Program-made: the position numbers and the translations under genes
DNA from: Ferroglobus placidus DSM 10642
GTDB taxonomy: Archaea; Halobacteriota; Archaeoglobi; Archaeoglobales; Archaeoglobaceae
Assembly (NCBI RefSeq): GCF_000025505.1
Contig: NC_013849.1
Coordinates: forward strand, 90,001 to 122,000
DNA: 32,000 nucleotides
Direction: 5' to 3'
In this document: one piece after another, positions 11,088 to 28,842 of the stretch
Layout: every line of letters starts with the position of its first letter
Numbering within the stretch: position 1 is the first letter of the stretch
Notes under the pieces: model-generated
What the model saw: the letters and a program-made list of their open reading frames with translations, nothing else
Database searches by the model: none
Told to the model about the DNA's origin: nothing

Positions 11088-11093
11088 AAAACA

Positions 11094-11099
11094 TTTATA
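11094..11099 (+). promoter_or_regulatory. TATA-box-like TTTATA about 27 nt upstream of the modB ATG (probable leaderless promoter)
   Basis: TTTATA at 11094-11099 and ATG at 11124. There is no Shine-Dalgarno-like purine run between them. Confidence 0.35.
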
Positions 11100-11123
11100 G
11101 CGTTCAGCCGATTACAACTTCCG

Positions 11124-12896: not shown

Positions 12897-13715
12897 TTAG
12901 AGAGACTTCCATTCTTCCGGAAGCTCGAATTTTCCTCCGATTTTGGCTTTCGGGGCTATTTTCCTAACTTCCTCAATTTCAGTCAGATATCCCATTTCTT
13001 TGTAGATTCTTTTGTTTGAATAAACGAAGTTCAGGAAAGAAAGAGATTTCTCAAAATTTTTCGTGAATTTCATCACTGCTATGGGGATGTAAGCAACTCT
13101 CGGAATCTGTTCAGGTTTCGGGAATATCACTTTCAGATTTGGACTCCAGTCGTCAAAGACGTCCCAGCCGATTACCGCATCAACCGCTCCAGCTTCTATA
13201 ATAGAAGCGGTGTCGGAGCAGCTTTTTGTGAGAGTGACTACGTTCTTCTTAACGTCAAGCCCGTTGTACTCGAAAAGTTCTACAGCGTACAACCCAACGC
13301 AAACAGTGTTGGGATTTGCTATCGCAATTCTTATTCCGTCTTTCTCCAAATCTTCAAGCTTGGATATCTTCTTGGGGTTATCTTTTCTGACAACTATTAC
13401 TGGAATTAAGTAAGCGAGAATTTTTTCCGTTTCCTCGTAAACGGCTCCTTTCTCCTTTGCAAGCTCCATGAAATCGTTGGACCCTGGCAAATATACGTCT
13501 CCTTTTTTGGCTATTATAGCTTGAGTTAAAACATATCCAGACCCTCCGTAGATCGCTTTGACTTTTTTGCCGTATAACTCGATTATTTTCTCCAGCGGCG
13601 GGAGATTCGCTGATCCGGCGTAAACCAAAAGTTCGCTTTCCAAAGAAAAGGCTGAAACTCCGAGCAACGAAAAAGCTCCTACCGCCGACAGCTTTAAGAA
13701 ATCCCTCCTCCTCAT
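12897..13715 (-). CDS. modA: Molybdate/tungstate-binding solute receptor (ModA-like) with twin-arginine-type signal
   Basis: 272 aa. The N-terminus is MRRRDFLKLSAVGAFSLLG. The body resembles ModA-type periplasmic binding proteins (GGSGYVLTQAI...ANPNTVCVG...). Its start overlaps the chaperone stop (ATGA, 13712-13715). Confidence 0.75.
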   Translation of the reverse strand: MRRRDFLKLSAVGAFSLLGVSAFSLESELLVYAGSANLPPLEKIIELYGKKVKAIYGGSGYVLTQAIIAKKGDVYLPGSNDFMELAKEKGAVYEETEKILAYLIPVIVVRKDNPKKISKLEDLEKDGIRIAIANPNTVCVGLYAVELFEYNGLDVKKNVVTLTKSCSDTASIIEAGAVDAVIGWDVFDDWSPNLKVIFPKPEQIPRVAYIPIAVMKFTKNFEKSLSFLNFVYSNKRIYKEMGYLTEIEEVRKIAPKAKIGGKFELPEEWKSL

Positions 13716-14194
13716 TCTTTTCCCTCGAAAATTTTCTCAAGCTCTTCGGCAGCTAAATCGTATACTTTCGAGTGCTTTTTAACTCTTTCTGTAAACTTGA
13801 AAATCCACTCTTTCATTCTATTGAAAAATTCCTGATCGTCCGTTAAAGCTAAAAATTCGAGCTCAACGCTCACGTGATCTGGAGGTTCGCTTAAATAAGT
13901 ATATTTTAACCCCCTACTTTCGTAAATTTCCCTAACCTCGACTGTAGATTCTCCGTAAACGAGTCCCTCTCTGTAAAACGACTCGTAGGGATGACATTTG
14001 AGGGTTGGGTAGGAGCTTACGAAGAGTCTCGTATACTCCGTCTGGAGGTCTTTGAGACTCATCTTTGTTAATTCTTCGACGACATGGGAGTATTCGGGAA
14101 TTTCTTCCACAAGTTTTCTCATTTCATTTATAGTTTCTTCAGTTGGGAAGGAAAAAATGAGGGAAAAGAGTTTGAATATCTTTTGCCTCTTCAT
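13712..14194 (-). CDS. TorD/NarJ/DmsD-family molybdoenzyme maturation chaperone
   Basis: 160 aa with family hallmarks: EYTRLFV (E-x3-LF) and EPPDHVSVELEFL (EPxDH...L). Confidence 0.75.
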   Translation of the reverse strand: MKRQKIFKLFSLIFSFPTEETINEMRKLVEEIPEYSHVVEELTKMSLKDLQTEYTRLFVSSYPTLKCHPYESFYREGLVYGESTVEVREIYESRGLKYTYLSEPPDHVSVELEFLALTDDQEFFNRMKEWIFKFTERVKKHSKVYDLAAEELEKIFEGKE

Positions 14195-14195
14195 T

Positions 14196-15473
14196 TTATG
14201 CAGCCTCTGCTTTTTCGACCGGCAGCGCTTTTAGTAGGAAGAGAAGGATGAAGGAAATTACCGCAAAGACTCCGATCGTTATCGTTATCTCTACTGGAGA
14301 GGGCACGTAGTTCCAGTAGTCCACGAAAATTGGCTCTGGGTTCATCAGAGTTCCTCTCACCTCTCCTACCGCAATAGGATAAGCCCATTCGAAACTTTCG
14401 TAGCCGAGGATTACGGCAATTCTCGTCGGAATCAGGTTGTAGGCTGGAGGCATAAGCAAATATCTATGTGCCAATATTCCTAGATTTATTATCACGCTTC
14501 CGAAAACCAAGCCGGAGACCGAAGAATACCTCGTTGCCAAGATTATTATGCCAAGTATCAACAGGATCACTTCTGCTGCATGGATAGCCAAGTAGTCTCT
14601 GAAAACGAGCATCAGTGCATCGTACTCTTTCCCAGCCTCCCACCACCACCTCACGAGGAAGTCGTTGTAGTACATGAAAAGCAATCCAGCTGCTGATGCG
14701 GCTGAAACCTTGGCAAGCAATCTGTAAGTTTGTGCGAGTTCTTCTTTAAATCCGTAAACTATCAGCGAAGCCAAAATAACCACTGCAGGACCAGCTGTTA
14801 GCGCTGCAGCGATAAAAGTTGGAGCAAGTAATCCGCCGTACCACCAAGGTCTTGAAAGCTGAGTAGCTAAGACCCAAGCGGTGACCGTGTGGATGAGTAT
14901 GGCGAACGGCAAAGCTATTGGTGCGAGTATTTTTGCTTGTCTTTCCGAAGCTTCTCTTAGCCTTGCAAGCTCGTCAGCTTTCACGTCTCTTTTCATTATC
15001 GTTTTTCCGAATATCGTTATTCCTCTCTCAGCTATCCTCGGTCTGAGCTGGACGTAGGTGTAGATTGCTGAAAGGACAGCATAGGTTGAGAGAACGAGAA
15101 AGTCCCAAGGAAGCAGAGATTTGGGGTTGGGGTAGATAATGATGTTGAGGATTCTATCCGGTCTACCCAAGTCAGGCAAGACCATGAGCATTGCAGCGAC
15201 CGCAAATATAAATGCTGTTAGAGAAGCCACTGGCGCTATTGGTTTCAGCTGCTTGGCTCCGAAGATGTAGATTGCCGAAGATACGACAAGACCACCCGCT
15301 GCCGTACCGACGTAAAAAGCCCACATCGCTATGTAAAGACCCCAGCTGAACGGGTTTCTCATGTTTGTCACTATTAACCCCTTCTGGATCTGGTAGATCC
15401 AGGCGGCGAAGCCAATTATTGCAAGTATTCCGAGTATGAGCATCGCAAGATTATACTTCCTCATCAAACTCAC
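14196..15473 (-). CDS. NrfD/PsrC-type integral membrane quinol-interacting subunit of the molybdoenzyme
   Basis: 425-aa protein, highly hydrophobic with roughly 10 TM segments. Its position after the Fe-S subunit, with a 4-nt overlap, matches CISM NrfD-type anchors. Confidence 0.75.
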   Translation of the reverse strand: MSLMRKYNLAMLILGILAIIGFAAWIYQIQKGLIVTNMRNPFSWGLYIAMWAFYVGTAAGGLVVSSAIYIFGAKQLKPIAPVASLTAFIFAVAAMLMVLPDLGRPDRILNIIIYPNPKSLLPWDFLVLSTYAVLSAIYTYVQLRPRIAERGITIFGKTIMKRDVKADELARLREASERQAKILAPIALPFAILIHTVTAWVLATQLSRPWWYGGLLAPTFIAAALTAGPAVVILASLIVYGFKEELAQTYRLLAKVSAASAAGLLFMYYNDFLVRWWWEAGKEYDALMLVFRDYLAIHAAEVILLILGIIILATRYSSVSGLVFGSVIINLGILAHRYLLMPPAYNLIPTRIAVILGYESFEWAYPIAVGEVRGTLMNPEPIFVDYWNYVPSPVEITITIGVFAVISFILLFLLKALPVEKAEAA

Positions 15474-16225
15474 CCCTTAACCTCCTCCTTATAATCAACT
15501 TCTCCCCTCTTCGTTTTTCTGGCTGGAGGAATGTAGAAAACTTTAGGCTCAGTTCCGAGCTCCTCAAGCAATCTGAAAACTGATCTATCCCTCAAGATCT
15601 TCGAAATCTCGCTGTTCGGATCGTCTAAATCCCCGAAAACTCTCGCGTTGCCGGGACATCCCCTAACGCATGCGGGAGCAATTCCTTTGTCAACGAACTG
15701 AACGCAGAACGTGCACTTCTCCACCACTCCTCTCGGTCTCGTTTTGGTGTAAACAAGCCTGCCATCCTTGGTTCTGTGATCGAAAGGATATCCATGTTTG
15801 TAATCTTTGACAGCATACCAGTTCTCTTCAAACCCCGCTCTTTCGAAAGCTTGTTTGAAGTTCTCATCGGCATCCTGCCAGTTGAACTGCCTCACTCCGT
15901 AAGGGCAGGCTGTGATGCAGTATCTGCAACCTATGCACCTCTCGAAGTCCACCAAAACCAAGCCGTCCTCTCTCTTCCACGTCGCCCCTACTGGACAGAC
16001 TTTGACGCATGGAGCGTTTTCGCAGTGCATACACGGCACTGGAAGAAAAACTTCGGAAAGGTTTGGATATTCTCCCACTGGCACCATGTGCTCTTTCGAG
16101 CCTACTGTTTCAACTCTCTGCCACCATGTTCCCGGAGGGACGCTGTTCACCATTTTGCATATTACGGCACAGCTTCTGCAGCCTATACACCTGTTAAGGT
16201 CTATAACCATGCCGTACCTAACCAT
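15470..16225 (-). CDS. Four-cluster [4Fe-4S] electron-transfer subunit (PsrB/NrfC/DmsB-like)
   Basis: 251 aa with four Cys groups: CIGCRSCAVIC, CMHCENAPCVKVCP, CIGCRYCITACP and CTFCVQFVDKGIAPACVRGCP. A GGTGAG ribosome-binding site lies in the 10-nt gap after the catalytic-subunit gene. Confidence 0.9.
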   Translation of the reverse strand: MVRYGMVIDLNRCIGCRSCAVICKMVNSVPPGTWWQRVETVGSKEHMVPVGEYPNLSEVFLPVPCMHCENAPCVKVCPVGATWKREDGLVLVDFERCIGCRYCITACPYGVRQFNWQDADENFKQAFERAGFEENWYAVKDYKHGYPFDHRTKDGRLVYTKTRPRGVVEKCTFCVQFVDKGIAPACVRGCPGNARVFGDLDDPNSEISKILRDRSVFRLLEELGTEPKVFYIPPARKTKRGEVDYKEEVKG

Positions 16226-16235
16226 TTAACTCACC

Positions 16236-18932
16236 TCAAACCTTCCTGACATCGCAAGCTGTTTCGTTCCAGCACGTTGTCGGCTCCCATATTCCGGGAA
16301 CGAAGTAAGCTAAGTGAGTCGCTTTAACCCACGGGAACGTTAGCGTGTTATACGAAGCCCCTCTCAGATACCTGCTCCACCATCCCTGCTCGAAGATTAT
16401 GACTCGCGGATGGATTCCTGGATCGAGAACGGCATATCCGTAGACTTTTCCTCTGTCGTTGTAAACCTCCACGAGATCCCCCTCTTTGATGCCTTTCTCC
16501 TTCGCAGTTTCGGGATTCATCCATACTCTCGGTCTGAAGTCCTGTAACTCAAGCATCGTCAGGTTGTTGCTGTGGGTTGAGTGAACTCTGTAGAGAGCGT
16601 TTCTCGTCACGTAAGCGAATTTGTACTTGTTCTTAGCTTCTGGATTGACTTTGTACTCTGTGTCGACGAAGGGGTCTTTGTGAACTGGCAAAGTTTCTCC
16701 GAAGTCTATGAAAACGTCCTCTTCTTTGTAGAACTCAATTCTTCCACTCTTCACGAATCTGGCTGTCTTGGGGAGGGGCGCTGGATAAGATGGCGGAGGG
16801 AACGGCTTTTTCTCTTGAATCTGCTCCCAGAAGGGAATCTGTCTGTTGTTCGGGGCTGGAAGGTTTAGTCTAACTGCACCTTCTTTAAGAAGCCTTTCGA
16901 GGGTTATGTTCTTCGTGAACTCGTGCTTTCCGAGCATGAGCTCAGCAGCTTTCAGCGAAGCTTCGTTCGCTATTTCTCTAGCGAGCTTCAAGCTCCAGGT
17001 TCCGTTCTTTCTCGCTTCCTCTTCTCTTCTGAACAGCTCTGGATCTGGATAGAACTCTTCTATCTGTGCCTTAAGCTCTGGGTCGTCCCATCTTTCCACG
17101 AGTCTCTTCGCTATTTCTTTGAAAATCCATATCTCCGGCATGCACTCAAATAGCGGCTCTATGGCAGGTTGTTGAAGCTGCACGTAAGGGTGAAGTATCG
17201 TGGCGGTAAGTTCGTATTTCTCGTACCAAGCAACTCCTGGCAATACAACATCAGCCCACTTCGTTGATGTCGTCTGCTGGAAGTCTATGGCAACTATTAG
17301 TTCGAGCTCACCACTTTTAGCCATCTCTTTAAGCCTGTTAGCCATGTTATGCTGATCAAATGGGTTGTTCCATCCGAAAACGAAAGCTTTAACGTCGTTC
17401 TTCGGGTAAGGAGTTTCTCTGTTGTACTTCCTGAACTCTTCACTCTGCCTGTATTCTTTGTTTAACCAGAGCAAGAACGTAACCCAGTTTGGCTTTCTTC
17501 CCTTAAACGACCACCACATTCCAAGGGGCCATCTTATTTTGAACTGTCCGGCGTATGTGGAAATTCCAGCACCGGGCTTTCCTATGTTTCCGGTTAGAGC
17601 CACTATTAACGAGAGAGCTCTTCCCTTTAAGTCTCCGTGGAACCACTGGTAGTTGCTCGCTCCGTAGATAATGTGGAGGGGCTTTACCGTTCCCATCTCT
17701 CTGCCGAGTCTCTTAATTATCTCCACATACTCCTCCTTGCTTCTACCCGGTGGAGTTATGATCTCTGCAACTTTTTCCGGAGTGTAGTCTTTGTTCACGA
17801 GCTCTTTAACAAGCTGGAATACCGGTTTGACCTTAACTTTTCTCCCGTCAACGAGCTCTACTTCAAATTCACCCTCTAAAGCTGGTTCGAAATCTCTTTC
17901 GAGCGTCTCAGGATTCACTATTTTGAATCTCTTCTCCTTGACATCGTAAACAACGAAGAGATCTCTGTATTCCGGAATCTTCTCTTTCATTTTCTCAGCT
18001 TCGTCCTTAAGCTCTTTAATCTCGTAAGCTCTCAGTCTCTTCTGGTTATCAAGCCTCACAAGGAGCGGCAAATCCGTGTAGGTCTTTACGAAATCCTCGT
18101 CGTAGAGCTTCTCGTTTATTATGACGTTCACTATTCCGAGAGCTAAAGCAGCATCGGTAGATGGATTGATCTGAATCCACTCATCAGCTTTAGCGGCTGT
18201 TGGAGTGAAGTTCATATCTACCATGATTACTTTCGCTCCTCTCTCTTTGGCTATGCTCAGGAACTTTGCGTCTGGCAGCCTTGTAACGAGAATGTTTGAG
18301 CCGAAAATTGCTATGTACCTTGAATTCACCCACTCAAGCGACTCAAATTCTTCGGTTTGCACTCCGAAAGTTTGAGACCAGAAAGCCGGTAGATCTCCGT
18401 TCATCGTGTATCCGTGAAGAACGCTCCATCCAAACATCGAAGCAAGCCTTATTGCAGCTCCTTTGTGCACGTATCCGGTTCCTGGCACTTGTATCGATAA
18501 GGCAACGCTTTCCGGTCCGTATTTTTTCATAACTTCGGCAAGTTTGTCAGCCACGTAGTCCAAAGCTTCGTCCCAGCTAACGGCTTTAAACTTCCCTTCC
18601 CCTCTCTCCCCAACTCTTATGAGCGGTTTTTTGAGTCTGTCAGGTCCGTAGATGAGGTTGAGCATCGACTGCCCTTTCAAGCAACCTCTCGGATTGTATT
18701 CAGCCTCTGGATAATCCGCTGCCTGAATGAGCTGCACTATTCTCCCCTTGTAAACGTAGGCGTTGTAGGCACAAGCACCGGTGCAGTTCGGAGAACAAGT
18801 TGATCTGACGACTTTCAGCTCTTCGTCTCTTTTCTCCGCTGAAGTTGCAAGTTCGAAGTACTTGCTGCCGATTCCCGCTGATATCGCTGTTAAAGCGCAT
18901 ATTTTCACAAAATCCCTTCTCGTTACGTTCAT
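16236..18932 (-). CDS. Tat-exported bis-PGD molybdo/tungsto-enzyme catalytic subunit of the Nar-like (type II DMSO reductase) clade; candidate outward-facing nitrate/(per)chlorate reductase
   Basis: 898 aa with the Tat signal MNVTRRDFVKICALTA. The FS0 motif is C-SPN-C-TGA-C...PRGC (C-x3-C-x3-C-x(n)-C). Long stretches align by eye with E. coli NarG, including GDLPAFW...GSN (the NarG CDLPPAS Asp-ligand region) and VLPGVAWYEKYE (NarG ILPTATWYEKDD). Confidence 0.85.
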   Translation of the reverse strand: MNVTRRDFVKICALTAISAGIGSKYFELATSAEKRDEELKVVRSTCSPNCTGACAYNAYVYKGRIVQLIQAADYPEAEYNPRGCLKGQSMLNLIYGPDRLKKPLIRVGERGEGKFKAVSWDEALDYVADKLAEVMKKYGPESVALSIQVPGTGYVHKGAAIRLASMFGWSVLHGYTMNGDLPAFWSQTFGVQTEEFESLEWVNSRYIAIFGSNILVTRLPDAKFLSIAKERGAKVIMVDMNFTPTAAKADEWIQINPSTDAALALGIVNVIINEKLYDEDFVKTYTDLPLLVRLDNQKRLRAYEIKELKDEAEKMKEKIPEYRDLFVVYDVKEKRFKIVNPETLERDFEPALEGEFEVELVDGRKVKVKPVFQLVKELVNKDYTPEKVAEIITPPGRSKEEYVEIIKRLGREMGTVKPLHIIYGASNYQWFHGDLKGRALSLIVALTGNIGKPGAGISTYAGQFKIRWPLGMWWSFKGRKPNWVTFLLWLNKEYRQSEEFRKYNRETPYPKNDVKAFVFGWNNPFDQHNMANRLKEMAKSGELELIVAIDFQQTTSTKWADVVLPGVAWYEKYELTATILHPYVQLQQPAIEPLFECMPEIWIFKEIAKRLVERWDDPELKAQIEEFYPDPELFRREEEARKNGTWSLKLAREIANEASLKAAELMLGKHEFTKNITLERLLKEGAVRLNLPAPNNRQIPFWEQIQEKKPFPPPSYPAPLPKTARFVKSGRIEFYKEEDVFIDFGETLPVHKDPFVDTEYKVNPEAKNKYKFAYVTRNALYRVHSTHSNNLTMLELQDFRPRVWMNPETAKEKGIKEGDLVEVYNDRGKVYGYAVLDPGIHPRVIIFEQGWWSRYLRGASYNTLTFPWVKATHLAYFVPGIWEPTTCWNETACDVRKV

Positions 18933-18953: not shown

Positions 18954-18969
18954 CCCTAAACTTTTAGGG
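18954..18969. promoter_or_regulatory. Perfect palindrome CCCTAAA-CT-TTTAGGG, 21 nt upstream of the molybdoenzyme start codon; third copy of the CTAA-N4-TTAG box
   Basis: Read directly. The 12-nt core at 18956-18967 (CTAAACTTTTAG) matches the nos-region boxes (CTAAAATGTTAG) at 10 of 12 positions. Confidence 0.5.
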
Positions 18970-19171: not shown

Positions 19172-19564
19172 TTAGTCTGTTACGACTAAAACCCCTCTCA
19201 TTATCCAGTGTCCAAGTCCGGAGTTTGGATAAGGTTCTCCGCAGTAAATGTTACACCTTATTTCAAATGTACCGGTTTTGTTTGGAACAAACGTAACCTC
19301 TTTCCACTTCCCCGGCTCGACTATTTCGTTTATGCCGAAAGCAGCGATGTACAATCCGTGAGTGACATCGTCACTCGTGAATCTCAGCGTAACTTTTTCT
19401 CCTTTTTTCACTACAATTTTATTTGGCACGAACATCCACTGCTTTGCGTGCAGCTCTATTACGTTCTCTTCCTTAGCTTGGGATTTGTAGTACATTGGTC
19501 CTCCTATTATCGCCAGGACTCCGATTATTAGAAGGAGTAATGCTATGATGTCTCCGATCCTCAT
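19172..19564 (-). CDS. Membrane-anchored CuA-type cupredoxin (COX2-like domain) with expanded copper loop
   Basis: The true start is ATG 19562-19564 (MRIGDIIALLLLIIGVLAIIGG...). GGAGGTG lies 9 nt upstream, and there is an ATGA overlap with the upstream gene's stop. Ligand pattern: H69...C104-x3-C108-x10-H119-x2-M122. The longer ORF-track model (to 19888) overlaps the polyferredoxin gene. Confidence 0.75.
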   Translation of the reverse strand: MRIGDIIALLLLIIGVLAIIGGPMYYKSQAKEENVIELHAKQWMFVPNKIVVKKGEKVTLRFTSDDVTHGLYIAAFGINEIVEPGKWKEVTFVPNKTGTFEIRCNIYCGEPYPNSGLGHWIMRGVLVVTD

Positions 19565-21108
19565 AAGAACACACCTCCTCCGAGCCAGACGTGTATAACT
19601 ATCAAAGCGTAGCCCAATACCGCTGCCACTATTGGTATCGCTGCTCTTATCGCAGCTTTCTTGTCGTCGAACATTCTCAACGATATTTCGTGAGCTGCCC
19701 TCGTTGAGAAAACGACTCCAGCAACTATGAACGCCATCTGTATGTACGGAATTGCCCATGTGAAGTAGGGCTGCCATTTGAGATGAGCAGTCCCGAATAT
19801 GTCCCAGCCTAAGTTGAAGGGGTCTGAGAGAATTCTCAACACGTAGGAACCGTTGACGAGCAGGATGTAGATTGAGAAAGCTCCCCAAGCCATGAGGCTT
19901 ATTGGAACGAGGGCGTAGGAGAAGTTTATGAACACTCTCTTGAAGGACACATCCTTTCCGGAGAGCATCTTTGAGAGGTATGCGAAGGCTGCGAACAATG
20001 CTGGGGCTATGACGAGGGTTGAAACCAAGATTATCCCTAAGAATGTCAGGTAGTTCTGCAGCGAGAACGCTTCGATGAGTAGATTCGTCTTCTTGTCGAA
20101 GGGCACGTGAATTGCTTTACCGATTAACGGAGCAACTTTTCCGCCAAGAACGTTGGAGACTTCTCTCAACCATGGGTGTGCTCCTGCAAACACTATTGCA
20201 TAGAGGATAGCCAACGTAGCCATTATGAACGTCTTGTAAGCTTCGTCAAGCCCTCTCTTCTTTATTCCGTACCATGGATCCACGAATAGATCTTCTCCTC
20301 CTATTCTGAAGTTGACAGCTATGTTGTCGAAGGGACAAGTCTTGATACATTCGGTACACAAGCCGCAGTAGGCGTTTCTGTTTAAGTTCCCCGGATACTC
20401 GAACCACGGGCATCCATATCCTTTATCGTTTCCTCTTATACAATCCTTGTAGCCAACGTGCTTTATGCATGTCTCTCTGTTCTTCACTCTAAGCTCGAGG
20501 GTTGAAAACATCGAATACAGTCCGATGAATCCTGAAACCGGGCAGATGTACCTGCAGAACGCTCTTCCTCTGAATATCAGAAATACTATTATTGGTAGTA
20601 TTATGACAAGAATTATTAGCAAAATTCCTGAAACCCACGGTCTCGTGACGAGAATTCCTATGAAGCTTGAGACCATTAGGAATGAGGCGTTCTGTATCCA
20701 GATGTTGTCGAACTTCTTTGGCCATCTTTTTCCAAGTCCTATGGGTTTGTGTCTAACTCCGACAAACGTTCCTCGCTGAATCCACTCTCCCAACGCCGGA
20801 ATAGGGCAGACTTGACACCATATCCTTCCTCCGAAGGGGACGAGAACGAGCATCAGCGCTGCCCACCAAACAATCCACATTATCAGAATCGCCAAGTTGC
20901 TGTTACCCACTGGACTTCCGAAAAAGGCTGCATACATCAAAGCGACGAAGATTAAGAAGTTCGGGAATATCGCTATGAACTGATACGCTCGCAATTTGAA
21001 TAGCCATCGGATTATCGGAATTCTGAGCAGGTCGTATCTAAAGAAGTACTTCGCCTCTTCCTTAGCTGTTGCATCCTTAACCTCTTCACCAACTTCCGCC
21101 AACTTCAC
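19561..21108 (-). CDS. NosR/NapH-family integral membrane iron-sulfur protein (polyferredoxin) with extra C-terminal multi-TM domain
   Basis: 515 aa. CxxCP/Cx3CP motifs follow TM helices (WCQVCPIPALGEW, FCRYICPVSGF). It also has a ferredoxin motif (CGLCTECIKTCP) and a partial Cys group (C-x9-C-x9-CP). It lacks the N-terminal FMN-binding domain of NosR. The GTG start at 21108 comes immediately after AGGAGGTGA. Confidence 0.7.
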   Translation of the reverse strand: MKLAEVGEEVKDATAKEEAKYFFRYDLLRIPIIRWLFKLRAYQFIAIFPNFLIFVALMYAAFFGSPVGNSNLAILIMWIVWWAALMLVLVPFGGRIWCQVCPIPALGEWIQRGTFVGVRHKPIGLGKRWPKKFDNIWIQNASFLMVSSFIGILVTRPWVSGILLIILVIILPIIVFLIFRGRAFCRYICPVSGFIGLYSMFSTLELRVKNRETCIKHVGYKDCIRGNDKGYGCPWFEYPGNLNRNAYCGLCTECIKTCPFDNIAVNFRIGGEDLFVDPWYGIKKRGLDEAYKTFIMATLAILYAIVFAGAHPWLREVSNVLGGKVAPLIGKAIHVPFDKKTNLLIEAFSLQNYLTFLGIILVSTLVIAPALFAAFAYLSKMLSGKDVSFKRVFINFSYALVPISLMAWGAFSIYILLVNGSYVLRILSDPFNLGWDIFGTAHLKWQPYFTWAIPYIQMAFIVAGVVFSTRAAHEISLRMFDDKKAAIRAAIPIVAAVLGYALIVIHVWLGGGVFL

Positions 21109-21567
21109 TCACCTCCTTGCTATATAATATCCCGTCACAGCTATTCCGAGAATTATTGCAAAAAGAGAGACTCCTCTCTCTGGATTGTTCGGTTTCACTA
21201 TCAGCTTCCCTGTCATGAATGGATGGTAGGGTCCGCAGGTAACGTTGCACCTGTACGTGAAAACTCCCGGTTTATCTGCTACGAACTTTATCACTCTCTC
21301 CCTCGGCCAACCTTCTTTTGTTATTATCGCTGTACCTATGTCGTAACCTTCAATGAAAAGACCGTGGGATACATCAGCAGATTTCAATCGTATGATAACT
21401 GTGTCTCCTTGGTTTACCTCTATCACTGAAGGTTCGTACTCCCATTGTTTTGCAATTACCGTGAACTCCTTTGTCGTACCTTTTGGACTCGTGTTCTGAG
21501 CACTGGATATAGTCAGCACTGAAATTCCCAGCACCACCAGCGCAAGCAGAATTACTCCTGCTCTCAT
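21109..21567 (-). CDS. Exported, C-terminally membrane-anchored CuA-type cupredoxin (COX2-like domain)
   Basis: 152 aa with the signal MRAGVILLALVVLGISVLTISSA and the C-terminal TM segment GVSLFAIILGIAVTGYYIARR. It has a canonical CuA pattern: H68 (SHGLFIEG)...C107-x3-C111-x3-H115-x2-M118 (YRCNVTCGPYHPFM). By eye it aligns with ba3-oxidase subunit II. Confidence 0.8.
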   Translation of the reverse strand: MRAGVILLALVVLGISVLTISSAQNTSPKGTTKEFTVIAKQWEYEPSVIEVNQGDTVIIRLKSADVSHGLFIEGYDIGTAIITKEGWPRERVIKFVADKPGVFTYRCNVTCGPYHPFMTGKLIVKPNNPERGVSLFAIILGIAVTGYYIARR

Positions 21568-21626
21568 CTCAACACCACCGTTTATTTTCTTACAATTTTG
21601 CTCTAATATCTGTAAAAAACTAACAC

Positions 21627-21638
21627 CTAAAATGTTAG
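21627..21638. promoter_or_regulatory. CTAAAATGTTAG box, 7 nt from a TTTTTTA element oriented toward the cupredoxin operon
   Basis: The core is at 21627-21638. The A6 run at 21614-21619 is T6 on the minus strand. A GGTGGTG ribosome-binding site and ATG 21567 lie downstream on the minus strand. Confidence 0.5.
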
Positions 21639-21885
21639 GAGTCTTAGGCGATCTAAAATTTTTTGATATTATAATAATGTTATATCCTTTAGAGTATAGC
21701 TGAAGTCAATGTTGTTGATACTCTAATCTGAAAAATATTGGTGTCATCTTTTTTAATTCTTGTTAATCGATGCTACTAAGAATTTTTAGCTCTTTTTAGC
21801 ATAACAATCATTATGACGATTTTTGAAGTAGCGGGAATAGATTAATTTTTTAGGGAGCGCAACCAAAATTGCTGGTTTTCAACCA

Positions 21886-21897
21886 CTAAAATGTTAG
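21886..21897. promoter_or_regulatory. CTAAAATGTTAG box, 7 nt upstream of a TTTTTTAT element (probable TATA box) of the nosZ promoter
   Basis: The core is at 21886-21897 and T6A at 21905-21911. The GGTGA ribosome-binding site is at 21948-21952 and ATG at 21958. The 13-mer CTAAAATGTTAGG is identical to the copy at 21627-21639. Confidence 0.5.
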
Positions 21898-21945
21898 GGT
21901 ATCATTTTTTATTGTTACATTCGTTAATTCAATATATAACTGGTT

Positions 21946-24039
21946 TTGGTGATGGGAATGGCGGAGGAGAAGAATGCGAAAAAGAACAACAAGAGAAACA
22001 ATAAAAACGGGGAGACTAAATTAACAAGAAGAGAATTTCTTAGCTTCGGAGGAGGTTTTATCGCTGGATTTGCCGTTGGAGCTGGAATTTCGAGGCTTGG
22101 TGGAGGAGGAGCACCAGCAGCTCCAGCCTCTTTTGCTGAAATAATGGAGCAGAGAGGGTTGACGCAGCAGGATGCTATTGCCGCTTTAAAAACCTACACT
22201 CCCGGAGGAAAGTACGACGAGTTCATAATGTTTGCCTCTGGAGGACATTCTGGGCAGGTGCTCGTAATCGGAGTTCCGAGCATGAGATTGTACAAAGTAA
22301 TAGCCGTATTCACCCCAGAGCCTTGGCAGGGATACGGATATGGACTGAAGGAAACCCATGAAGTTCTTAAAGGAGGGTATAACGGAATTCGCCCATTGAG
22401 CTGGGGAGACACTCATCATCCTGAAATCAGCAGAACCAATGCTGAGTTTGACGGAGAATGGCTGTTTATTAACGATAAAGCAAACGGCAGAGCTGCTGTT
22501 ATAAGCCTCAAGGACTTCGAGACGAAACAAATAGTAAAAGTTCCGAACACTCAAACAGTCCACGGAGGGTGCTTTGCCACTCCAAATACTGAATACGTTG
22601 CAATTGTCAGCCAATATGCAACCCCATGGGATCCTGAAAAAGGAGGATACATCCCCGGAGAAACGTATGTTGAGTTGACTGAGGAGAACTACAAGAAGTA
22701 CTTCAGAGGAACTTACACGTTTTTGGCTTTCGACAGAAAGAGGGGAAGATTCGACCTATCAAAGAGCTTCCAGATAGAGCTTCCTCCGTACACGCAGGAT
22801 CTTGTAGCTGTAGGATGGGGTCCGAGCGATGGTTTGGCTTTCTGCAACTCTTTCAACACCGAGTTGGCTGTTGGAGGTGTCTTAAAAGGAAAACCTCCAC
22901 TTGAGATTGGAATGTCCCAGAACGATTTCGACTATCTTCACGTAATTCTGTGGAAGAAGGCTGAGCAGTACGTTAAGGAAGGAGGAGGAGAAGTGATAAA
23001 CGGGATAAGAGTAATAAGGTTGAAGGAGGCTGTTAAGGAGGGGCTGATTTACTTTGTTCCCGAACCAAAAAGCCCCCACGGATGTGATATAACGCCGAAC
23101 GGAGATTACGTTTGTGTCAGTGGAAAGCTCGATCCCGTTGTGACAGTCTATAGCGTGGAGAAGATAAAAAGGGCTATCGAAGAGAAGAAGTTCGAAAAGA
23201 AAGATCCCTACGGTGTTCCAGTTTTGAAGTTTGACGAAGTTGTTGAGGCTCAGATAGAGGTTGGTTTAGGTCCTCTCCACACAGAATTCGACGATAAAGG
23301 CTATGCTTACACAAGCCTCTTCATAGACAACGCTGTAGCAAGATGGAAGCTTGGTCCACCCTACAACGAAGATGGATGGAAAGTTGTTGAAAGAATTCCC
23401 ATAAACTACAACGTTGGACATCTGGCAACTCCGGAGAGTAACTCTCCGACGCCAAAAGGAAAGTATCTCGTTTCCCTAAACAAGTGGTCGATCGAAAGAT
23501 TCCCGCTTGTCGGTCCACTGCATCCGCAGAACTTCCAGTTAATTGACATAAGTGGGGAGAGAATGCAGCTCCTTTACGACATGCCCATAGGACTTGGTGA
23601 ACCTCACTATGCGAAGATAATCAGCATCGAGAAACTTAAGCCACTCGATGTTTACCCAGCTGGAACTGACCCGCTTACCTTCCAGCCACATCCGAAGGCA
23701 ATACAGCAGGGACAGGAGAGAATTGAGAGAAAGCAGGAGAACGGAAAGTGGGTTACTGAGATTTATGCTACATTAATCAGAAGTACCATAACTCCTGACA
23801 TAATGAAAGCCAAAGTGGGAGACATCGTGAGAATTTATCTGACGAACGTTGAATACACGAGAGATGCAACACATGGATTCTGTATCGCAGAGTACAACAT
23901 AAACGCGAGTCTTGAGCCGGGAGAGACTGGAACGATAGAGTTCGTTGCGGACAAGCCAGGAGTTTATGCGATCTACTGTACGGAGTTCTGTTCACCACTC
24001 CACCTGGAAATGGCCGGTTGGTTAGTAATTGAACCATAA
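21946..24039 (+). CDS. nosZ: Nitrous-oxide reductase NosZ (Tat-type signal)
   Basis: It has the twin-arginine motif LTRREFLSF (RR codons at 22027-22032) and the CuZ-region DTHHP (22408-22422). The C-terminal CuA site is HGFCIAEY...C-TEF-C-SPL-H-LE-M (23977-24012). The likely true start is ATG 21958, preceded by GGTGA; the ORF-track start is TTG 21946. Confidence 0.95.
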   Translation: MVMGMAEEKNAKKNNKRNNKNGETKLTRREFLSFGGGFIAGFAVGAGISRLGGGGAPAAPASFAEIMEQRGLTQQDAIAALKTYTPGGKYDEFIMFASGGHSGQVLVIGVPSMRLYKVIAVFTPEPWQGYGYGLKETHEVLKGGYNGIRPLSWGDTHHPEISRTNAEFDGEWLFINDKANGRAAVISLKDFETKQIVKVPNTQTVHGGCFATPNTEYVAIVSQYATPWDPEKGGYIPGETYVELTEENYKKYFRGTYTFLAFDRKRGRFDLSKSFQIELPPYTQDLVAVGWGPSDGLAFCNSFNTELAVGGVLKGKPPLEIGMSQNDFDYLHVILWKKAEQYVKEGGGEVINGIRVIRLKEAVKEGLIYFVPEPKSPHGCDITPNGDYVCVSGKLDPVVTVYSVEKIKRAIEEKKFEKKDPYGVPVLKFDEVVEAQIEVGLGPLHTEFDDKGYAYTSLFIDNAVARWKLGPPYNEDGWKVVERIPINYNVGHLATPESNSPTPKGKYLVSLNKWSIERFPLVGPLHPQNFQLIDISGERMQLLYDMPIGLGEPHYAKIISIEKLKPLDVYPAGTDPLTFQPHPKAIQQGQERIERKQENGKWVTEIYATLIRSTITPDIMKAKVGDIVRIYLTNVEYTRDATHGFCIAEYNINASLEPGETGTIEFVADKPGVYAIYCTEFCSPLHLEMAGWLVIEP

Positions 24040-24090: not shown

Positions 24091-24594
24091 ATGAGATCTC
24101 TCATGGCACTTTCGTTTGCTCTCGTGCTAGTAGCACTGATAATTGCCGGATGCTCTGAGGAGAAACCTCCGGAAATTCAGCTCGGAGTTGACAAATGCGA
24201 CATGTGTGGGATGATAATAAGTGAGAAAAATTACGCTGGGCTTTACTACTCTACCAAAGAGAAAAGGTGGAAGAAGTTCGACGATATTGGATGTTTGGTA
24301 ATGGAAGCTAAAAAAGAGGGGGATGCGAAAGCTGGAACAATCTACGTTTTTGACTACGAAACTGGGGAATTGATAAAAGCTGAAAAAGCCTACTACGTCG
24401 TTTCTCGGGACATATGGACACCGATGAACACCGGAATAATTGCTTTCAAAAGCAAGGAAAAAGCTGAGGAAACAGCGAAAAAGCAAGGAGGAAAGGTTAT
24501 GAGCTTTGAGGAGCTAATGAAGATGGAGATGAAAATGGGTTGGATGGGCGGAAGGAGAAGTGAACGAACCTCTATGAGCCATACCGGGAAATGA
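24091..24594 (+). CDS. nosL: NosL copper-chaperone lipoprotein with Met-rich C-terminal tail
   Basis: 167 aa with a lipobox-like LIIAG-C21 and the NosL hallmark DKCDMCGM. The tail has 7 Met between residues 137 and 162. Confidence 0.8.
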   Translation: MRSLMALSFALVLVALIIAGCSEEKPPEIQLGVDKCDMCGMIISEKNYAGLYYSTKEKRWKKFDDIGCLVMEAKKEGDAKAGTIYVFDYETGELIKAEKAYYVVSRDIWTPMNTGIIAFKSKEKAEETAKKQGGKVMSFEELMKMEMKMGWMGGRRSERTSMSHTGK

Positions 24595-24603
24595 GGTGGT
24601 AAA

Positions 24604-25185
24604 ATGGATAAAAAAAGAGTGAAAAAAGCTGTGGCAGCTGCTTTAATAATCCTTGCAACGTTTTCCCCAATCTGGACGATGAAACTCAACGCACCGCTTT
24701 ACGGAAAAAAATGGCTTCACGTAACGCTGTATAGCTACAAGGTGGAGGGGGATATTAAAGAAGTAAATATCGTAAACCATTACGTAGGTTTGAGGGAGAT
24801 AAATCCGGAGGAGATGATAGAGTTAAAAGTTGCCCCAATAATCTTCGGAATTCTCGACGTTCTTTCGTTGATAGGAGTGGCGGTGAGCAGCGAGAGATTC
24901 GAAAAGTTCTTCTGGATTGTACTTGTGCTCACAGCTATAGGCATTCCAGCTTACTTGCAGTACTGGCTTTACAACTACGGACACGATTTGAATCCCAAAG
25001 CTGCAGTTGAAATAGAGCCGTTTACACCTCCGGTTATAACGATTACTCCAAACAAGGTTGGCAATTTCAGAACAATAAGCTACTTGGACATTGGCTACTG
25101 GATGATCGTAGCAGCTATGCTTCTTTATTTGCCGGATGGTGTGGTAAGAAAACTCAGAAAATCGAGGGCGACGGAGAATGCTTAA
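24604..25185 (+). CDS. Four-TM membrane protein of unknown function embedded in the nos cluster (NosB-like by position only)
   Basis: 193-aa ORF with a GAGGTGGT ribosome-binding site upstream and an 8-nt overlap with the nosD start. It has four hydrophobic segments. I recognise no catalytic motif. Confidence 0.6.
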   Translation: MDKKRVKKAVAAALIILATFSPIWTMKLNAPLYGKKWLHVTLYSYKVEGDIKEVNIVNHYVGLREINPEEMIELKVAPIIFGILDVLSLIGVAVSSERFEKFFWIVLVLTAIGIPAYLQYWLYNYGHDLNPKAAVEIEPFTPPVITITPNKVGNFRTISYLDIGYWMIVAAMLLYLPDGVVRKLRKSRATENA

Positions 25186-26548
25186 AATTACAAATATTTT
25201 ATTTTTAATTTTAATATTTTTAATTCTCATTGGAGTTGCTTCGGGAGAAATCTACTACGCTTCACCAGCCAATATAACTCAGGTGCTTGAAAAAGCTCGT
25301 GATGGAGATACGATATATTTGTTGGAAGGTTATTATAAAGGAGGAATTGTTCTCAACAAGAGTATTTCTCTCATCGGCGTAAACTACCCGGTTATAGATG
25401 CTATGGGTGGGGTTTACGGGATATTAATTGAGGCAAACAACTGCACGGTGGAGAAGGTAAAAATAATTAACACGTCAACATCGAGAAGTCTTCAGCCGGC
25501 TGGAATAGTACTTCGATCAGATTATAATATTATAAGAAACGTAGTTATGGAGAACGTTTACTACGGAATTCTGCCTCAAGAGGCTGATTATAATATAATA
25601 GAAGACTGCTACTTGGTTGGCTTGAGAGATGTGGACATTAATTATAGGGGGGACGGTATCTACCTCTGGAACTCCAGATACAACATAATAAGGAACGTTA
25701 CGATGCTTTACTTCCAAGATGGAATTTACAGCGAACATTCGTACTTCAACAAGTTGATTAACAACACCGTCGCTTATTCACGCTACGCTGTCCACAACAT
25801 GTACTGCACAGATTATTTAATCGACGGCATGGTTTCTTTGCAAAACATAGCTGGTTATGTGATAATGTATTCAGCAAATGTCACTGTTAGAAACAGCATA
25901 GCTGAGGTAAATTGGAGGAGTGCTGTCGGAGAGGGAATCTTTGTAATTGAAACTGACAACGTCCTAATTGAAAACAACACCGTCTATGCTGGTATATACG
26001 GAATGGAGATCAAGAGAACACCCTACAGACCGGGGCACTATGCTATAGTAAGGTGGAACACCATAGTCTACAATCAGGTCGGAATCTCAGTAGATGAGGA
26101 AAGTAGCGTGATTTTTTACGGAAACAATTTCATAGAAAATGTGGACAACATCGAGGCGATAGGAGATATAGGGAGAAAGATGAAGTGGTACAGCGAGGAG
26201 CTTAAAGTGGGGAATTTCTGGGATACATATGCTGGATTCGATAAAAATAAAGACGGAATTGGAGATATTCCCTATGTGGAGAGGAGTTTTGCCGAACATA
26301 TCATCGACAGCTACCCAACCCTTAGAATATTCATGTACACTCCCGCATATCAGGCTTTGGAGACTATGTCAAAGATATTCCCGATAAATCCGAAAATTAG
26401 TGTTTACGATCCTTATCCCTTAATGAAACCGAATGTCAATCTGAACTATAAAGAGAAAAACGTGAATGCTCAAATGTTATTTACTTCAGTCCTTCTCGTA
26501 TCGGCATCTGTGATAATTATTTGGAGGTATGGTTATGGCGGTTATTGA
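25178..26548 (+). CDS. nosD: NosD, right-handed beta-helix copper-site maturation protein, with N-terminal signal and C-terminal TM anchor
   Basis: 456 aa. The N-terminal region ANITQVLEKARDGDTIYLLEGYYKGGIVLNKSISLIG and repeated N-x-[IV] beta-helix turns (IIRNV, LINNT, IENNT, GNNFIEN) fit NosD. The C-terminal hydrophobic segment is LFTSVLLVSASVIIIW. Confidence 0.85.
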   Translation: MLKITNILFLILIFLILIGVASGEIYYASPANITQVLEKARDGDTIYLLEGYYKGGIVLNKSISLIGVNYPVIDAMGGVYGILIEANNCTVEKVKIINTSTSRSLQPAGIVLRSDYNIIRNVVMENVYYGILPQEADYNIIEDCYLVGLRDVDINYRGDGIYLWNSRYNIIRNVTMLYFQDGIYSEHSYFNKLINNTVAYSRYAVHNMYCTDYLIDGMVSLQNIAGYVIMYSANVTVRNSIAEVNWRSAVGEGIFVIETDNVLIENNTVYAGIYGMEIKRTPYRPGHYAIVRWNTIVYNQVGISVDEESSVIFYGNNFIENVDNIEAIGDIGRKMKWYSEELKVGNFWDTYAGFDKNKDGIGDIPYVERSFAEHIIDSYPTLRIFMYTPAYQALETMSKIFPINPKISVYDPYPLMKPNVNLNYKEKNVNAQMLFTSVLLVSASVIIIWRYGYGGY

Positions 26549-27353
26549 AATTGAGGAGGTTTACAAGGAGTATGAAGGATTCGTTGCGTTGAAAGGAATC
26601 ACTCTCTCAATAAAGAAGGGGTTAACGTTGCTGCTCGGACCCAACGGAGCTGGAAAGACCACGCTTTTGAAATGCATCGTCGGGCTGCTGAACTTCGAAG
26701 GAGAAATTCGGATCATGGGTTATGACGTTTTAAGAGAAGCGGTGAAAGCGAAAAATTTCCTCGGCTATCTCCCTCAAAAAGTTTCCATCTACGAAAATAT
26801 GAAATGCTATGAAATTGTGAAATTCTTTTCTGAGTTGAGAAAAATAGATCTGGATGTTGAAGAGGTTTTGAAATTAGCGGAGCTTGAAGAGGAGTATCAT
26901 TCTAAGTTCGGGGAGCTTTCTGGAGGAATGAGGCAGAGGTTTGCTCTTGCGTTACTCCTTGCTTCTGATCTTCCAGTTCTAATACTCGACGAGCCCATGA
27001 GTAACTTAGACCCAATGGGGAGAAGGAGGTTTGAGGGAATGCTGAGGGAGCTGAAATCTGATAAAACGATACTCGTTAGCTCTCACTCTCTTGGCAGTTT
27101 GTTACCTTACGCTGATAGAGTAGTGGTTATGAACGAGGGAGAAGTTGTTTTCGATGGAGAACTTGATCAATTCTTATCTATGCTTGATGAGAAATTCAAG
27201 GCTCACGTTAAAACGAGCGAAGGATGGTTTACGATAACCGCAAAAACGTTCGAGGAGTTCATGGACAGCATAGATGGTAGAATGGTAGAGGAGGTTATTT
27301 TTGAGGAGATACCGATTGATCAGCTTATAGCGAAGATAAGCGGAGGTGAGTGA
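26529..27353 (+). CDS. nosF: NosF ABC-transporter ATPase
   Basis: It has Walker A (GPNGAGKTT), the signature LSGGMRQRFALA, and Walker B (LILDEP). Spacing from GGAGGT (26523-26528) favours ATG 26535 as the start. Confidence 0.9.
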   Translation: MVMAVIEIEEVYKEYEGFVALKGITLSIKKGLTLLLGPNGAGKTTLLKCIVGLLNFEGEIRIMGYDVLREAVKAKNFLGYLPQKVSIYENMKCYEIVKFFSELRKIDLDVEEVLKLAELEEEYHSKFGELSGGMRQRFALALLLASDLPVLILDEPMSNLDPMGRRRFEGMLRELKSDKTILVSSHSLGSLLPYADRVVVMNEGEVVFDGELDQFLSMLDEKFKAHVKTSEGWFTITAKTFEEFMDSIDGRMVEEVIFEEIPIDQLIAKISGGE

Positions 27354-28170: not shown

Positions 28171-28842
28171 ATGCCGGGGATGAAGGAAGTTGTGATCAAG
28201 ATGAAAATGACCCCCCACACTTGGGTTAGAAAGATAATATCAGAGGATCCGCTTCAAGTGAGAATTCTCGACTGCAGATCTATTCAAGGAAAAGATGGTG
28301 TGATAGAGCTATTTGAAATTAGAACGGAAGGTAAGAATGTTGATAAGATAATCGAGAAGCTGAAGAAATGCAGCGAAATTTACGACTTGGAAATTCTCGA
28401 TAAAGATTACAGGAGAGGAGAAATCGTAGGGACGCTCAAAACAACTCATTGTGACGTTTGCAAGCATTTCACACACTTACCGGACTGCTTTCTCGGTTCT
28501 GCAGATTACGAGCTGAAAGATGGCTACGTTTACTGGAAACTACTTTTAACTAACGAAGATTTGAAGCTTTTACTCAAAAAGTTCGAAGAGATGGGAGTGG
28601 AGATAGAAATAGAGGAGATGTCAAGCTATGAACATCATGAAGACTCTCTGACGGTGAAGCAGGAGCAGATAGTCAAGCTCGCTTGGGAAATGGGATACTT
28701 CGACACTCCAAGGAAGATAAGTCTCAAGAAACTATCAGAAATTCTTGGCATATCCACACCAACCCTTTCGGAAATTCTGAGGAGGGGTTTGAGAAAAATT
28801 GTGAAGGACTATTTTGAGAAGGTAAGTAGGAGGAAGAGGTAA
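28171..28842 (+). CDS. HTH_10 (Bat/NarO/DmsR-type) transcriptional regulator with N-terminal Cys/His cluster
   Basis: The C-terminal LTVKQEQIVKLAWEMGYFDTPRKISLKKLSEILGISTPTLSEILRRGLRKIV is the HTH_10 pattern. The N-domain has H93-C94-x2-C97-x-H99-x2-H102-x3-C106 (28447-28488). It starts 6 nt after nosY. Confidence 0.8.
   Translation: MPGMKEVVIKMKMTPHTWVRKIISEDPLQVRILDCRSIQGKDGVIELFEIRTEGKNVDKIIEKLKKCSEIYDLEILDKDYRRGEIVGTLKTTHCDVCKHFTHLPDCFLGSADYELKDGYVYWKLLLTNEDLKLLLKKFEEMGVEIEIEEMSSYEHHEDSLTVKQEQIVKLAWEMGYFDTPRKISLKKLSEILGISTPTLSEILRRGLRKIVKDYFEKVSRRKR

Follow-up and report, generated by a model that had tools for sequence, protein, structure and literature searches.

Methanoperedens, a methane-oxidising organism, has in its nar operon three genes that were listed as HCO II, NapH, and again HCO II (MPEBLZ_02039-02041; Arshad et al., PMC4683180, Table 1). 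The NapH of this operon was described with 9 helices, including a C-terminal five-helix extension, all genes of the operon are highly transcribed, NarI and NarM are missing from Methanoperedens, and the authors suggested an unusual nitrate-reducing membrane complex (PMC4683180). In BLZ2, NarGH, NapH, HCOIIa/b, and Orf7 were put together as a non-canonical nitrate reductase in a paper of 2026 (PMC13079737). No biochemical work on the HCO II-NapH-HCO II proteins was found in the literature. Here, we describe a trio of the same kind, cupA-polyFd-cupC, which lies divergently to the nitrous oxide (N2O) reductase gene nosZ in Ferroglobus placidus DSM 10642, within a stretch of 32,000 nucleotides (contig NC_013849.1, positions 90,001 to 122,000; hereafter the window, in whose numbering coordinates are given). 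The initial annotation of the window had called the trio undescribed; with the Methanoperedens genes at hand (PMC4683180, PMC13079737), it is the nos-linked variant of a widespread, already noticed, and biochemically unstudied system of NapH-like proteins and CuA cupredoxins. A description of the nos-linked form itself was not found in literature searches, from which subscription reviews were out of reach, and blue-copper proteins appear in papers on anammox nxr clusters, which do not describe the trio.

The cupA-polyFd-cupC trio and its family

The three genes lie on one strand and share their control region with nosZ:

21109..21567, minus strand: cupA, a CuA-type cupredoxin of 152 amino acids (aa)
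19561..21108, minus strand: polyFd, a NapH-like membrane polyferredoxin of 515 aa with a GTG start
19172..19564, minus strand: cupC, a CuA-type cupredoxin of 130 aa
21568..21945: divergent control region between cupA and nosZ, 378 base pairs (bp)

With cupA at the head, polyFd in the middle, and cupC last, the trio is translationally coupled and divergent from nosZ. The TGA stop of cupA directly abuts the GTG with which polyFd starts, a junction that contains AGGAGGTGA, and polyFd and cupC overlap in an ATGA at 19561-19564, with GGAGGAGGTG upstream. Coordinates, junctions, and tight coupling are as the initial annotation had them, and the 378-bp control region also stands, given a nosZ TTG start at 21946 (the public call starts four codons later and gives 693 aa). 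For polyFd, public gene calls take a TTG two codons further on; the resulting 513-aa form (P0001) was matched by exact look-up, and the 515-aa product was not. The published names, Ferp_0128 for nosZ in the genome paper (PMC3236036) and Ferp_0124 for the molybdoenzyme beside the trio in a review (PMC6299022), agree with the gene order in the window, which makes the trio Ferp_0125-0127.

Both outer proteins have a complete set of CuA ligands. Motif analysis located them at H68, C107, C111, H115, and M118 in cupA (C-x3-C-x3-H-x2-M) and at H69, C104, C108, H119, and M122 in cupC (C-x3-C-x10-H-x2-M); those of NosZ are H643, C678, C682, H686, and M689. Hence, the binuclear ligand set is exact in cupA, and cupC has all five ligands with a 10-residue Cys-His spacer, which sets its second Cys and the His 7 residues further apart. 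According to hydropathy, residues 3-21 of cupA form an N-terminal signal or anchor segment and residues 132-150 a C-terminal anchor helix, and cupC is held by an N-terminal anchor helix (residues 3-21). The Pfam family Cupredoxin_1 (PF13473, cut-off 27) takes in both proteins (33.7 bits for cupA, 47.7 bits for cupC). A search with the COX2 profile (PF00116, gathering score 22), which the initial annotation had named as a check, was positive for cupC (33.9 bits) and stayed below the threshold for cupA (16.4 bits). The best matches in the PDB were CuA domains of Thermus ba3 oxidase subunit II for both cupA (6ptt, E 3.8e-15) and cupC (6pty, E 4.5e-11). Among related loci, 46 of 47 upstream and 39 of 47 downstream cupredoxins carry C-x3-C-x3-H-x2-M, far beyond chance. 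In sum, ligand sets, conservation, and structural matches speak for CuA-type cupredoxins, as initially annotated, and both sites probably hold copper of this type. The 10-residue spacer of cupC is confined to the window's own nos-linked archaeal clade: the loop CxxYCGEPxxxSGxGHWxM is seen in the window, in L005 (10185-10601), L017, L018, and L019, and nearly all family members outside this clade have the canonical 3-residue spacer in their downstream cupredoxin.

In line with the initial annotation, the middle protein is a NapH/NosR superfamily member devoid of the flavin mononucleotide (FMN) domain: polyFd scores 37.5 bits over two stretches with Fer4_5 (PF12801, gathering score 22), and a Pfam scan gave no FMN_bind match. 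Nine helices are predicted (AlphaFold2 model, pLDDT 80.5, pTM 0.84). Comparison of 24 homologues revealed the invariant motifs C98-x2-C101-P, C185-x3-C189-P, and C248-x2-C251-x2-C254-x3-C258-P; there is a single canonical 4Fe-4S motif. C214, C223, and C233-P are invariant as well, and H217 is nearly so. C214-x2-H217-x5-C223-x9-C233-P stands where NapH has its first ferredoxin motif (window 20347-20467, residues 214-254), and the residues C214/H217/C223/C233 suggest a His-ligated or 3Fe cluster. The C-terminal five-helix extension bears a conserved SDPFxxGWD loop. Judging from loop charges and natural cupredoxin fusions, the N-terminus, the CxxCP-type motifs, and the ferredoxin domain would be cytoplasmic and the SDPFxxGWD loop would face outward.

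None of the named families fits polyFd well. With NapH/MauN (TIGR02163) it scores 24.7 bits against a cut-off of 213, with NapH (PRK09477) 17.7 bits against 234; the NosR model (NF046105, cut-off 1000) gave no match, nor did CcoG/FixG (TIGR02745) at E ≤ 0.01, and a FixG_C domain is missing. All 24 family members tested match the NapH/MauN model far under its cut-off, six weakly match the NosR model, and two weakly match the CcoG model (TIGR02745, ~3e-3). Since all these matches are weak, we regard polyFd as a separate family inside the NapH/NosR/CcoG superfamily. Solved relatives were found in the PDB neither by sequence nor by Foldseek.

A homologue search with polyFd returned 776 relatives; 248 were found at E ≤ 1e-30 among 1.84 billion representatives (50% identity clusters). 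A polyFd profile scan of 185,579 species genomes gave 522 relatives, best among them a Ferroglobus metagenome-assembled genome (MAG) with 96% identity. The majority belong to Chloroflexota, and the module is therefore not archaeal in the sense of the initial annotation. A metagenome scan with a single protein query returned only 7 loci, and tblastn against plasmids hit only remote genes annotated as "4Fe-4S binding protein", whose surroundings were uninformative, with no match annotated as NosR, NapH, or FixG. Neighbourhoods were compared for the best 80 genome loci, and neighbours were counted in the 42 loci that extend at least 5 kb to either side; GC-rich loci were scored from tblastn rather than from open reading frame (ORF) calls. 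The order cupredoxin-polyferredoxin-cupredoxin is near-universal in the 80 loci. Furthermore, the polyferredoxin often carries a cupA-type cupredoxin plus its anchor helix as an N-terminal fusion, across many lineages, and each of the five CuA ligands is at least 90% conserved in 38 aligned fusions. On balance, the three proteins probably form one membrane complex.

Genomic linkage of the module and a shared palindrome

The divergent layout of nos genes and trio recurs on four contigs of Caldarchaeum, in Geothermarchaeum, in a Nitrososphaerota MAG, and in a second Ferroglobus (L097). Two Chloroflexota have the trio immediately upstream of nosZ on the same strand, and cupC even overlaps nosZ in one of them (L065). 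In Pyrohabitans (L018), a fused cupredoxin-polyferredoxin and a second cupredoxin accompany a clade I nosZ that reaches 892 bits with the TAT model (L018 4032-8088 and 10001-11916), and the same cluster encodes a response regulator and a NosR-like protein of 696 aa (474 bits to the NosR model). A neighbour-joining tree places the window inside a thermophilic archaeal clade that is mostly nos-linked. NosZ is encoded in 5 of the 42 well-flanked loci, which is far above chance linkage. The link of trio and nosZ seen in the initial annotation thus recurs in independent lineages, five further lineages of thermophilic archaea among them. A nos-specific module, which had also been assumed, is not what the counts describe: NarG-NarH-(NarJ)-Orf7/EB_dh lies directly upstream of the trio in 8 of the 42 loci, both Methanoperedens included, and the order cupredoxin-polyferredoxin-cupredoxin after NarGH is seen in Methanoperedens and Acidobacteriota. 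The idea that the trio simply replaces NosR is weakened as well, because the NosR-like gene and the trio share the Pyrohabitans nos cluster; NosR and the module are not alternatives.

The genes next to the trio in the window are:

21946..24039, plus strand: nosZ, clade II, 786 bits with TIGR04246 (cut-off 625), with a nos_propeller domain
24091-24594, plus strand: nosL (Pfam/NCBIfam)
24604-25185, plus strand: four-helix membrane protein of 193 aa, between nosL and nosD
25178-26548, plus strand: nosD (Pfam/NCBIfam)
26529-27353, plus strand: nosF (Pfam/NCBIfam)
27346-28164, plus strand: nosY (Pfam/NCBIfam)
28171..28842, plus strand: HTH_10 regulator of the bacterio-opsin-activator type (Pfam HTH_10, 69 bits)
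13712-18932, minus strand: molybdoenzyme operon, which begins 239 bp beyond cupC

Trio, nosZ, and molybdoenzyme operon have a palindrome in common. An 18-nucleotide (nt) element with the palindrome (C)CTAAAATGTTAGG is present in the control region at 21622-21639 on the cupA side and at 21881-21898 on the nosZ side (palindrome cores at 21626-21639 and 21885-21898), and a third palindrome, CCTAAACTTTTAGG, is located at 18955-18968, 23 nt upstream of the start of the molybdoenzyme operon. The consensus CCTAA-N4-TTAGG had a chance expectation of zero in 100 shuffles. The sole other match in the window is a core (CTAA-N4-TTAG) at 12889, and none of 100 shuffles reached the four core sites observed. 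In the second Ferroglobus, the promoter-proximal blocks on both sides hardly differ from those in the window, while the central spacer has diverged; the third palindrome is conserved. The position of the palindromes in conserved promoter blocks fits a co-regulation of nosZ, trio, and molybdoenzyme operon, and we consider the palindrome a candidate operator of an N-oxide/oxyanion regulon. Perhaps it is bound by the HTH_10 protein, a homologue of which flanks the nos/trio island in L005-L008, L016, L017, L021, and L097.

The order nosZ-L-(193 aa)-D-F-Y recurs in related archaeal loci. The 193-aa protein has no Pfam or NCBIfam match; it keeps its place in the nos clusters of archaea and of two Chloroflexota (27-41% identity) and may be an analogue of NosB. 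NosZ itself scores 786 bits with the clade II "Sec-dependent" model versus 384 bits with the TAT model. Its N-terminus has a clear twin-arginine motif (TRREFLSF), and tatC is encoded in the window at 5111-5821; clade and export signal, which usually go together, are thus not paired as usual in this NosZ. The molybdoenzyme is a TAT-exported, type II dimethyl sulfoxide (DMSO)-reductase-like protein of 898 aa (DMSO_red_II_alpha, TIGR03479, 536 bits, below the cut-off), and its operon also encodes a DsrO/ArrB-like Fe-S subunit, a DsrP/NrfD-like membrane anchor, and a TorD/NarJ-like chaperone. The enzyme, probably Ferp_0124, is related to the (per)chlorate/nitrate reductase Af_0176 of A. fulgidus (PMC6299022). 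Genes for a ModA-like binding protein, an ABC transporter, and a ribbon-helix-helix regulator follow the operon at 10566-13715. At the edges of the region, there are genes for an aconitase X (77-1210) and a homologue of MtrH-family methyltransferases (29555-30388), which are apparently unrelated to the trio.

A proposed electron supply to NosZ and its alternatives

How could such a module work? Together, the data point to a quinol (or cytoplasmic-donor):cupredoxin oxidoreductase complex that feeds outward-facing N-oxide reductases, here NosZ, and we consider this, by a modest measure, probable. In our model, polyFd would sit in the membrane with its Fe-S domain and the CxxCP and Cx3CP motifs on the cytoplasmic side, flanked on the outer face by the two membrane-tethered CuA-type cupredoxins, and the complex would reduce its own external CuA domains. 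Menaquinol may be the source of electrons; quinol as the donor is suggested by the analogy with NapH. In some lineages, cytoplasmic Fe-S or flavin enzymes that dock on the ferredoxin domain may take its place, an assumption based on GltD-like and Hdr-like neighbours. Terminal reductases that face outward and have no membrane anchor of their own would next receive the electrons from the CuA domains. The client in the window would be the clade II NosZ, reached by CuA-to-CuA transfer, and the module would stand in for NosGH/NosC1C2 or for bc1 plus cytochrome c or pseudoazurin. The direction of electron flow, the donor, and direct contact with NosZ are what we infer from gene order and motifs. Consistent with this model, the same module adjoins, and presumably serves, another outward-facing N-oxide reductase, NarGH. 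The palindrome in the conserved promoter blocks of nosZ and trio also speaks for it, as does the parallel in architecture with NosR and PceC, which is drawn from general knowledge of these families. Furthermore, the window holds no other electron module: NosR/X, NosG/H, and C1C2 were not found in it, ORFs of at least 100 aa contain no CxxCH motif, and COX1, Rieske, and cytochrome b families are missing among the window proteins that were scanned or have precomputed Pfam annotation (a 485-aa ORF at 30385-31842, covered by the NCBIfam scan only, had no match). The absences from the window noted in the initial annotation, of oxidase subunit I, cytochrome c, and Rieske/bc genes as well as of NosR/NosX and NosGH/C1C2, are thereby borne out. 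The trio next to a NosR-like gene in Pyrohabitans suggests that it supplies bulk electrons, as bc1/cytochrome c or NosGH/C1C2 would, and does not perform the function of NosR.

In other genomes, the module has cytoplasmic redox enzymes as neighbours. GltD-like flavoproteins (Fer4_20 plus Pyr_redox_2) are encoded directly downstream in some clades (L024, L025, L047, L048, L069), genes for an oxoacid:ferredoxin oxidoreductase (OFOR) and HdrABC-like proteins lie upstream in L020 (234-7025), and FAD-oxidase/CCG genes are near the module in Thorarchaeota; L013 shows this last context. The recurrence of these neighbours hints at an electron input from the cytoplasm. Another group has genes for a haem-c/porin-like protein and plastocyanin-like genes near the module.

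Several points count against electron transfer from the module to NosZ. NosZ is not encoded within 10 kb in 37 of the 42 well-flanked loci. F. placidus is reported to go no further than N2O, and the presence of nosZ was termed surprising (PMC3236036). The 7-residue insertion in the ligand loop of cupC bears on whether this site stays binuclear. The main weakness is that no conserved His, Cys, or Met able to relay electrons was found in the membrane or the outer loops of polyFd among 24 homologues. With Fe-S motifs predicted to be cytoplasmic, cupredoxins outside, and no ligands spanning the membrane, a route across it is not evident, and the path from quinol via polyferredoxin to CuA that the initial annotation had drawn is not apparent from the anatomy. 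Finally, Chloroflexota modules are often flanked by OmpR-type two-component systems, PCYCGC lipoproteins (PF13798), DUF2085, and His-rich CPH-type (CopB-like) P-ATPases (L072, L086, L087, L094, and about 30 other Chloroflexota loci), which an electron donor does not explain.

These copper-related flanks would be at home in copper handling, with polyFd as a CcoG-like cupric reductase and the cupredoxins as copper-binding proteins or chaperones that metallate NosZ or protect from copper. CcoG belongs to the same Fer4_5 superfamily as polyFd, two of the 24 family members weakly match its model, and nos clusters are rich in genes for copper maturation. However, polyFd of the window does not match CcoG and all 24 members match NapH/MauN, both cupredoxin positions have the complete ligand set of an electron-transferring CuA site and no chaperone motifs, and copper delivery would not account for the linkage to NarGH, which is copper-free, or to enzymes of cytoplasmic redox metabolism (GltD-like, Hdr/OFOR, FAD-oxidase/CCG); we therefore regard this function as improbable. 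NarGH, with no copper centre to maintain, is also an obstacle to the related idea that the module keeps the copper centres of NosZ redox-active or repairs them, as NosR would, and does not carry bulk flux. This appears quite unlikely to us, since a full-length NosR-like gene and the trio in one nos cluster of Pyrohabitans count against redundancy, although polyFd is in the NosR superfamily (with weak NosR matches in 6 of 24 members), the fused forms follow the domain order of NosR (external redox domain, helix, polyferredoxin), and NosR was not found in the window. We consider it very improbable that the cupredoxins belong as subunit II to a haem-copper oxidase or NO reductase that is encoded at another place in the genome and has escaped recognition. 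Their best relatives in sequence and structure are indeed CuA domains of oxidase subunit II, and a Nor is encoded in another part of the F. placidus genome (PMC3236036). Yet only 3 of the 80 loci have COX1-family genes within 10 kb, in no case adjacent to the trio, the window has no COX1, and the conserved, often fused partner of the cupredoxins is a polyferredoxin. A trio that is part of an oxidase or NO reductase was rejected for want of an adjacent subunit I. The initial annotation had taken the cupredoxins for orphans, which they are here and in relatives, and had named conservation beside a haem-copper or NO reductase subunit I, with no nosZ link, as the pattern that would speak against it; no such adjacency exists in the 80 loci.

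The neighbouring type II DMSO-reductase/pNar molybdoenzyme is another imaginable client, instead of or along with NosZ, as assumed for NarGH in Methanoperedens. Its operon follows cupC at a distance of 239 bp on the same strand, its best score is with DMSO_red_II_alpha (536 bits), and CCTAA-N4-TTAGG is also found upstream of it. Moreover, Nar-type linkage (8 loci) is at least as frequent as nos linkage (5 loci) among well-flanked loci, and a partial Mo-enzyme gene lies beside the trio in L019. On the other hand, the molybdoenzyme has its own Fe-S subunit and an NrfD/DsrP-type, quinol-interacting anchor and thus needs no extra module, trio and nosZ occur together without such a Mo-enzyme in the Caldarchaeum, Geothermarchaeum, and Nitrososphaerota loci, and an AT-rich spacer with a T-run separates the trio from the molybdoenzyme operon. 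We consider this client rather unlikely. There is also a wider view: the module could be a general haem- and flavin-free cupredoxin reductase in which electrons would pass via the polyferredoxin, with unusual CxxCP/Cx3CP and Cys/His-ligated clusters, to membrane-tethered, stand-alone CuA proteins outside and on to NosZ, outward-facing NarGH, or possibly extracellular acceptors. The donors would be ferredoxin, Hdr-type or GltD-type enzymes, or quinol, and the CuA proteins would be interchangeable. Such generality is conceivable, if unlikely; if true, a respiratory coupling site that is widespread among Archaea and Bacteria would have gone unrecognised so far, and CuA proteins that stand alone would have their first physiological role.

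Electron supply to clade II and archaeal N2O reductases is poorly known beyond a few bacteria, and, to our knowledge, N2O reduction is the sole biological sink for this greenhouse gas. The trio is a concrete, conserved donor candidate, and stand-alone CuA electron carriers would be unusual in copper biochemistry. It also ties N2O reduction to the unexplained "NapH/HCO II" nitrate reductase genes of Methanoperedens, since the nos- and nar-linked trios belong to one family with about 520 species genomes. The cupredoxin domains are small, thermostable, and soluble without their anchor helices, so the central claims are directly testable.

Relation to described systems

The Methanoperedens module is of the same kind as the trio. 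Its two representatives (L054, L070) were recovered by the polyFd profile; they have the order cupredoxin-polyferredoxin-cupredoxin, a polyferredoxin with 41-42% identity to polyFd, and CuA motifs in both cupredoxins, and gene order and homology thereby identify the trio with HCO II-NapH-HCO II. Likewise, the NapH-like proteins of both have 9 helices with the C-terminal five-helix extension. The Methanoperedens module differs in its partner, which is NarGH-Orf7 and not NosZ, in its clade within the family tree, and in its downstream cupredoxin, which has a 3-residue spacer compared to 10 residues in cupC. Both modules are known from genomics, in Methanoperedens with the addition of transcript levels.

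NapGH and NosGH share with the trio a membrane polyferredoxin that has CX3CP and cytoplasmic 4Fe-4S motifs and is encoded together with a periplasmic N-oxide reductase, and among named families, NapH/MauN comes nearest to all 24 polyFd family members tested. However, NapH has four helices, two CX3CP, and two CxxCxxCxxxCP motifs, whereas polyFd has 9 helices, CxxCP plus Cx3CP, and one canonical motif, and the external partners of NapH and NosH are the Fe-S proteins NapG and NosG or the cytochromes NosC1/C2, in place of which the trio has a CuA cupredoxin. NosR and PceC begin with an external redox domain, followed by a helix and a polyferredoxin. The fused members of the polyFd family have the same architecture as NosR (and PceC/RdhC), and NosR and the trio both occur in nos clusters, but the external domain of NosR binds FMN and that of the trio is a CuA cupredoxin. 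CcoG/FixG/RdxA are also in the Fer4_5 superfamily and linked to the biogenesis of cuproenzymes; polyFd differs in the lack of FixG_C, and the conserved partners in the trio are cupredoxins. As for the cupredoxins themselves, the ligand pattern of cupA is identical to that of the CuA domains of Thermus thermophilus ba3 subunit II and NosZ. What sets the trio apart from ba3 subunit II is the lack of a subunit I partner, the C-terminal anchor of cupA, and the 7-residue loop insertion of cupC.

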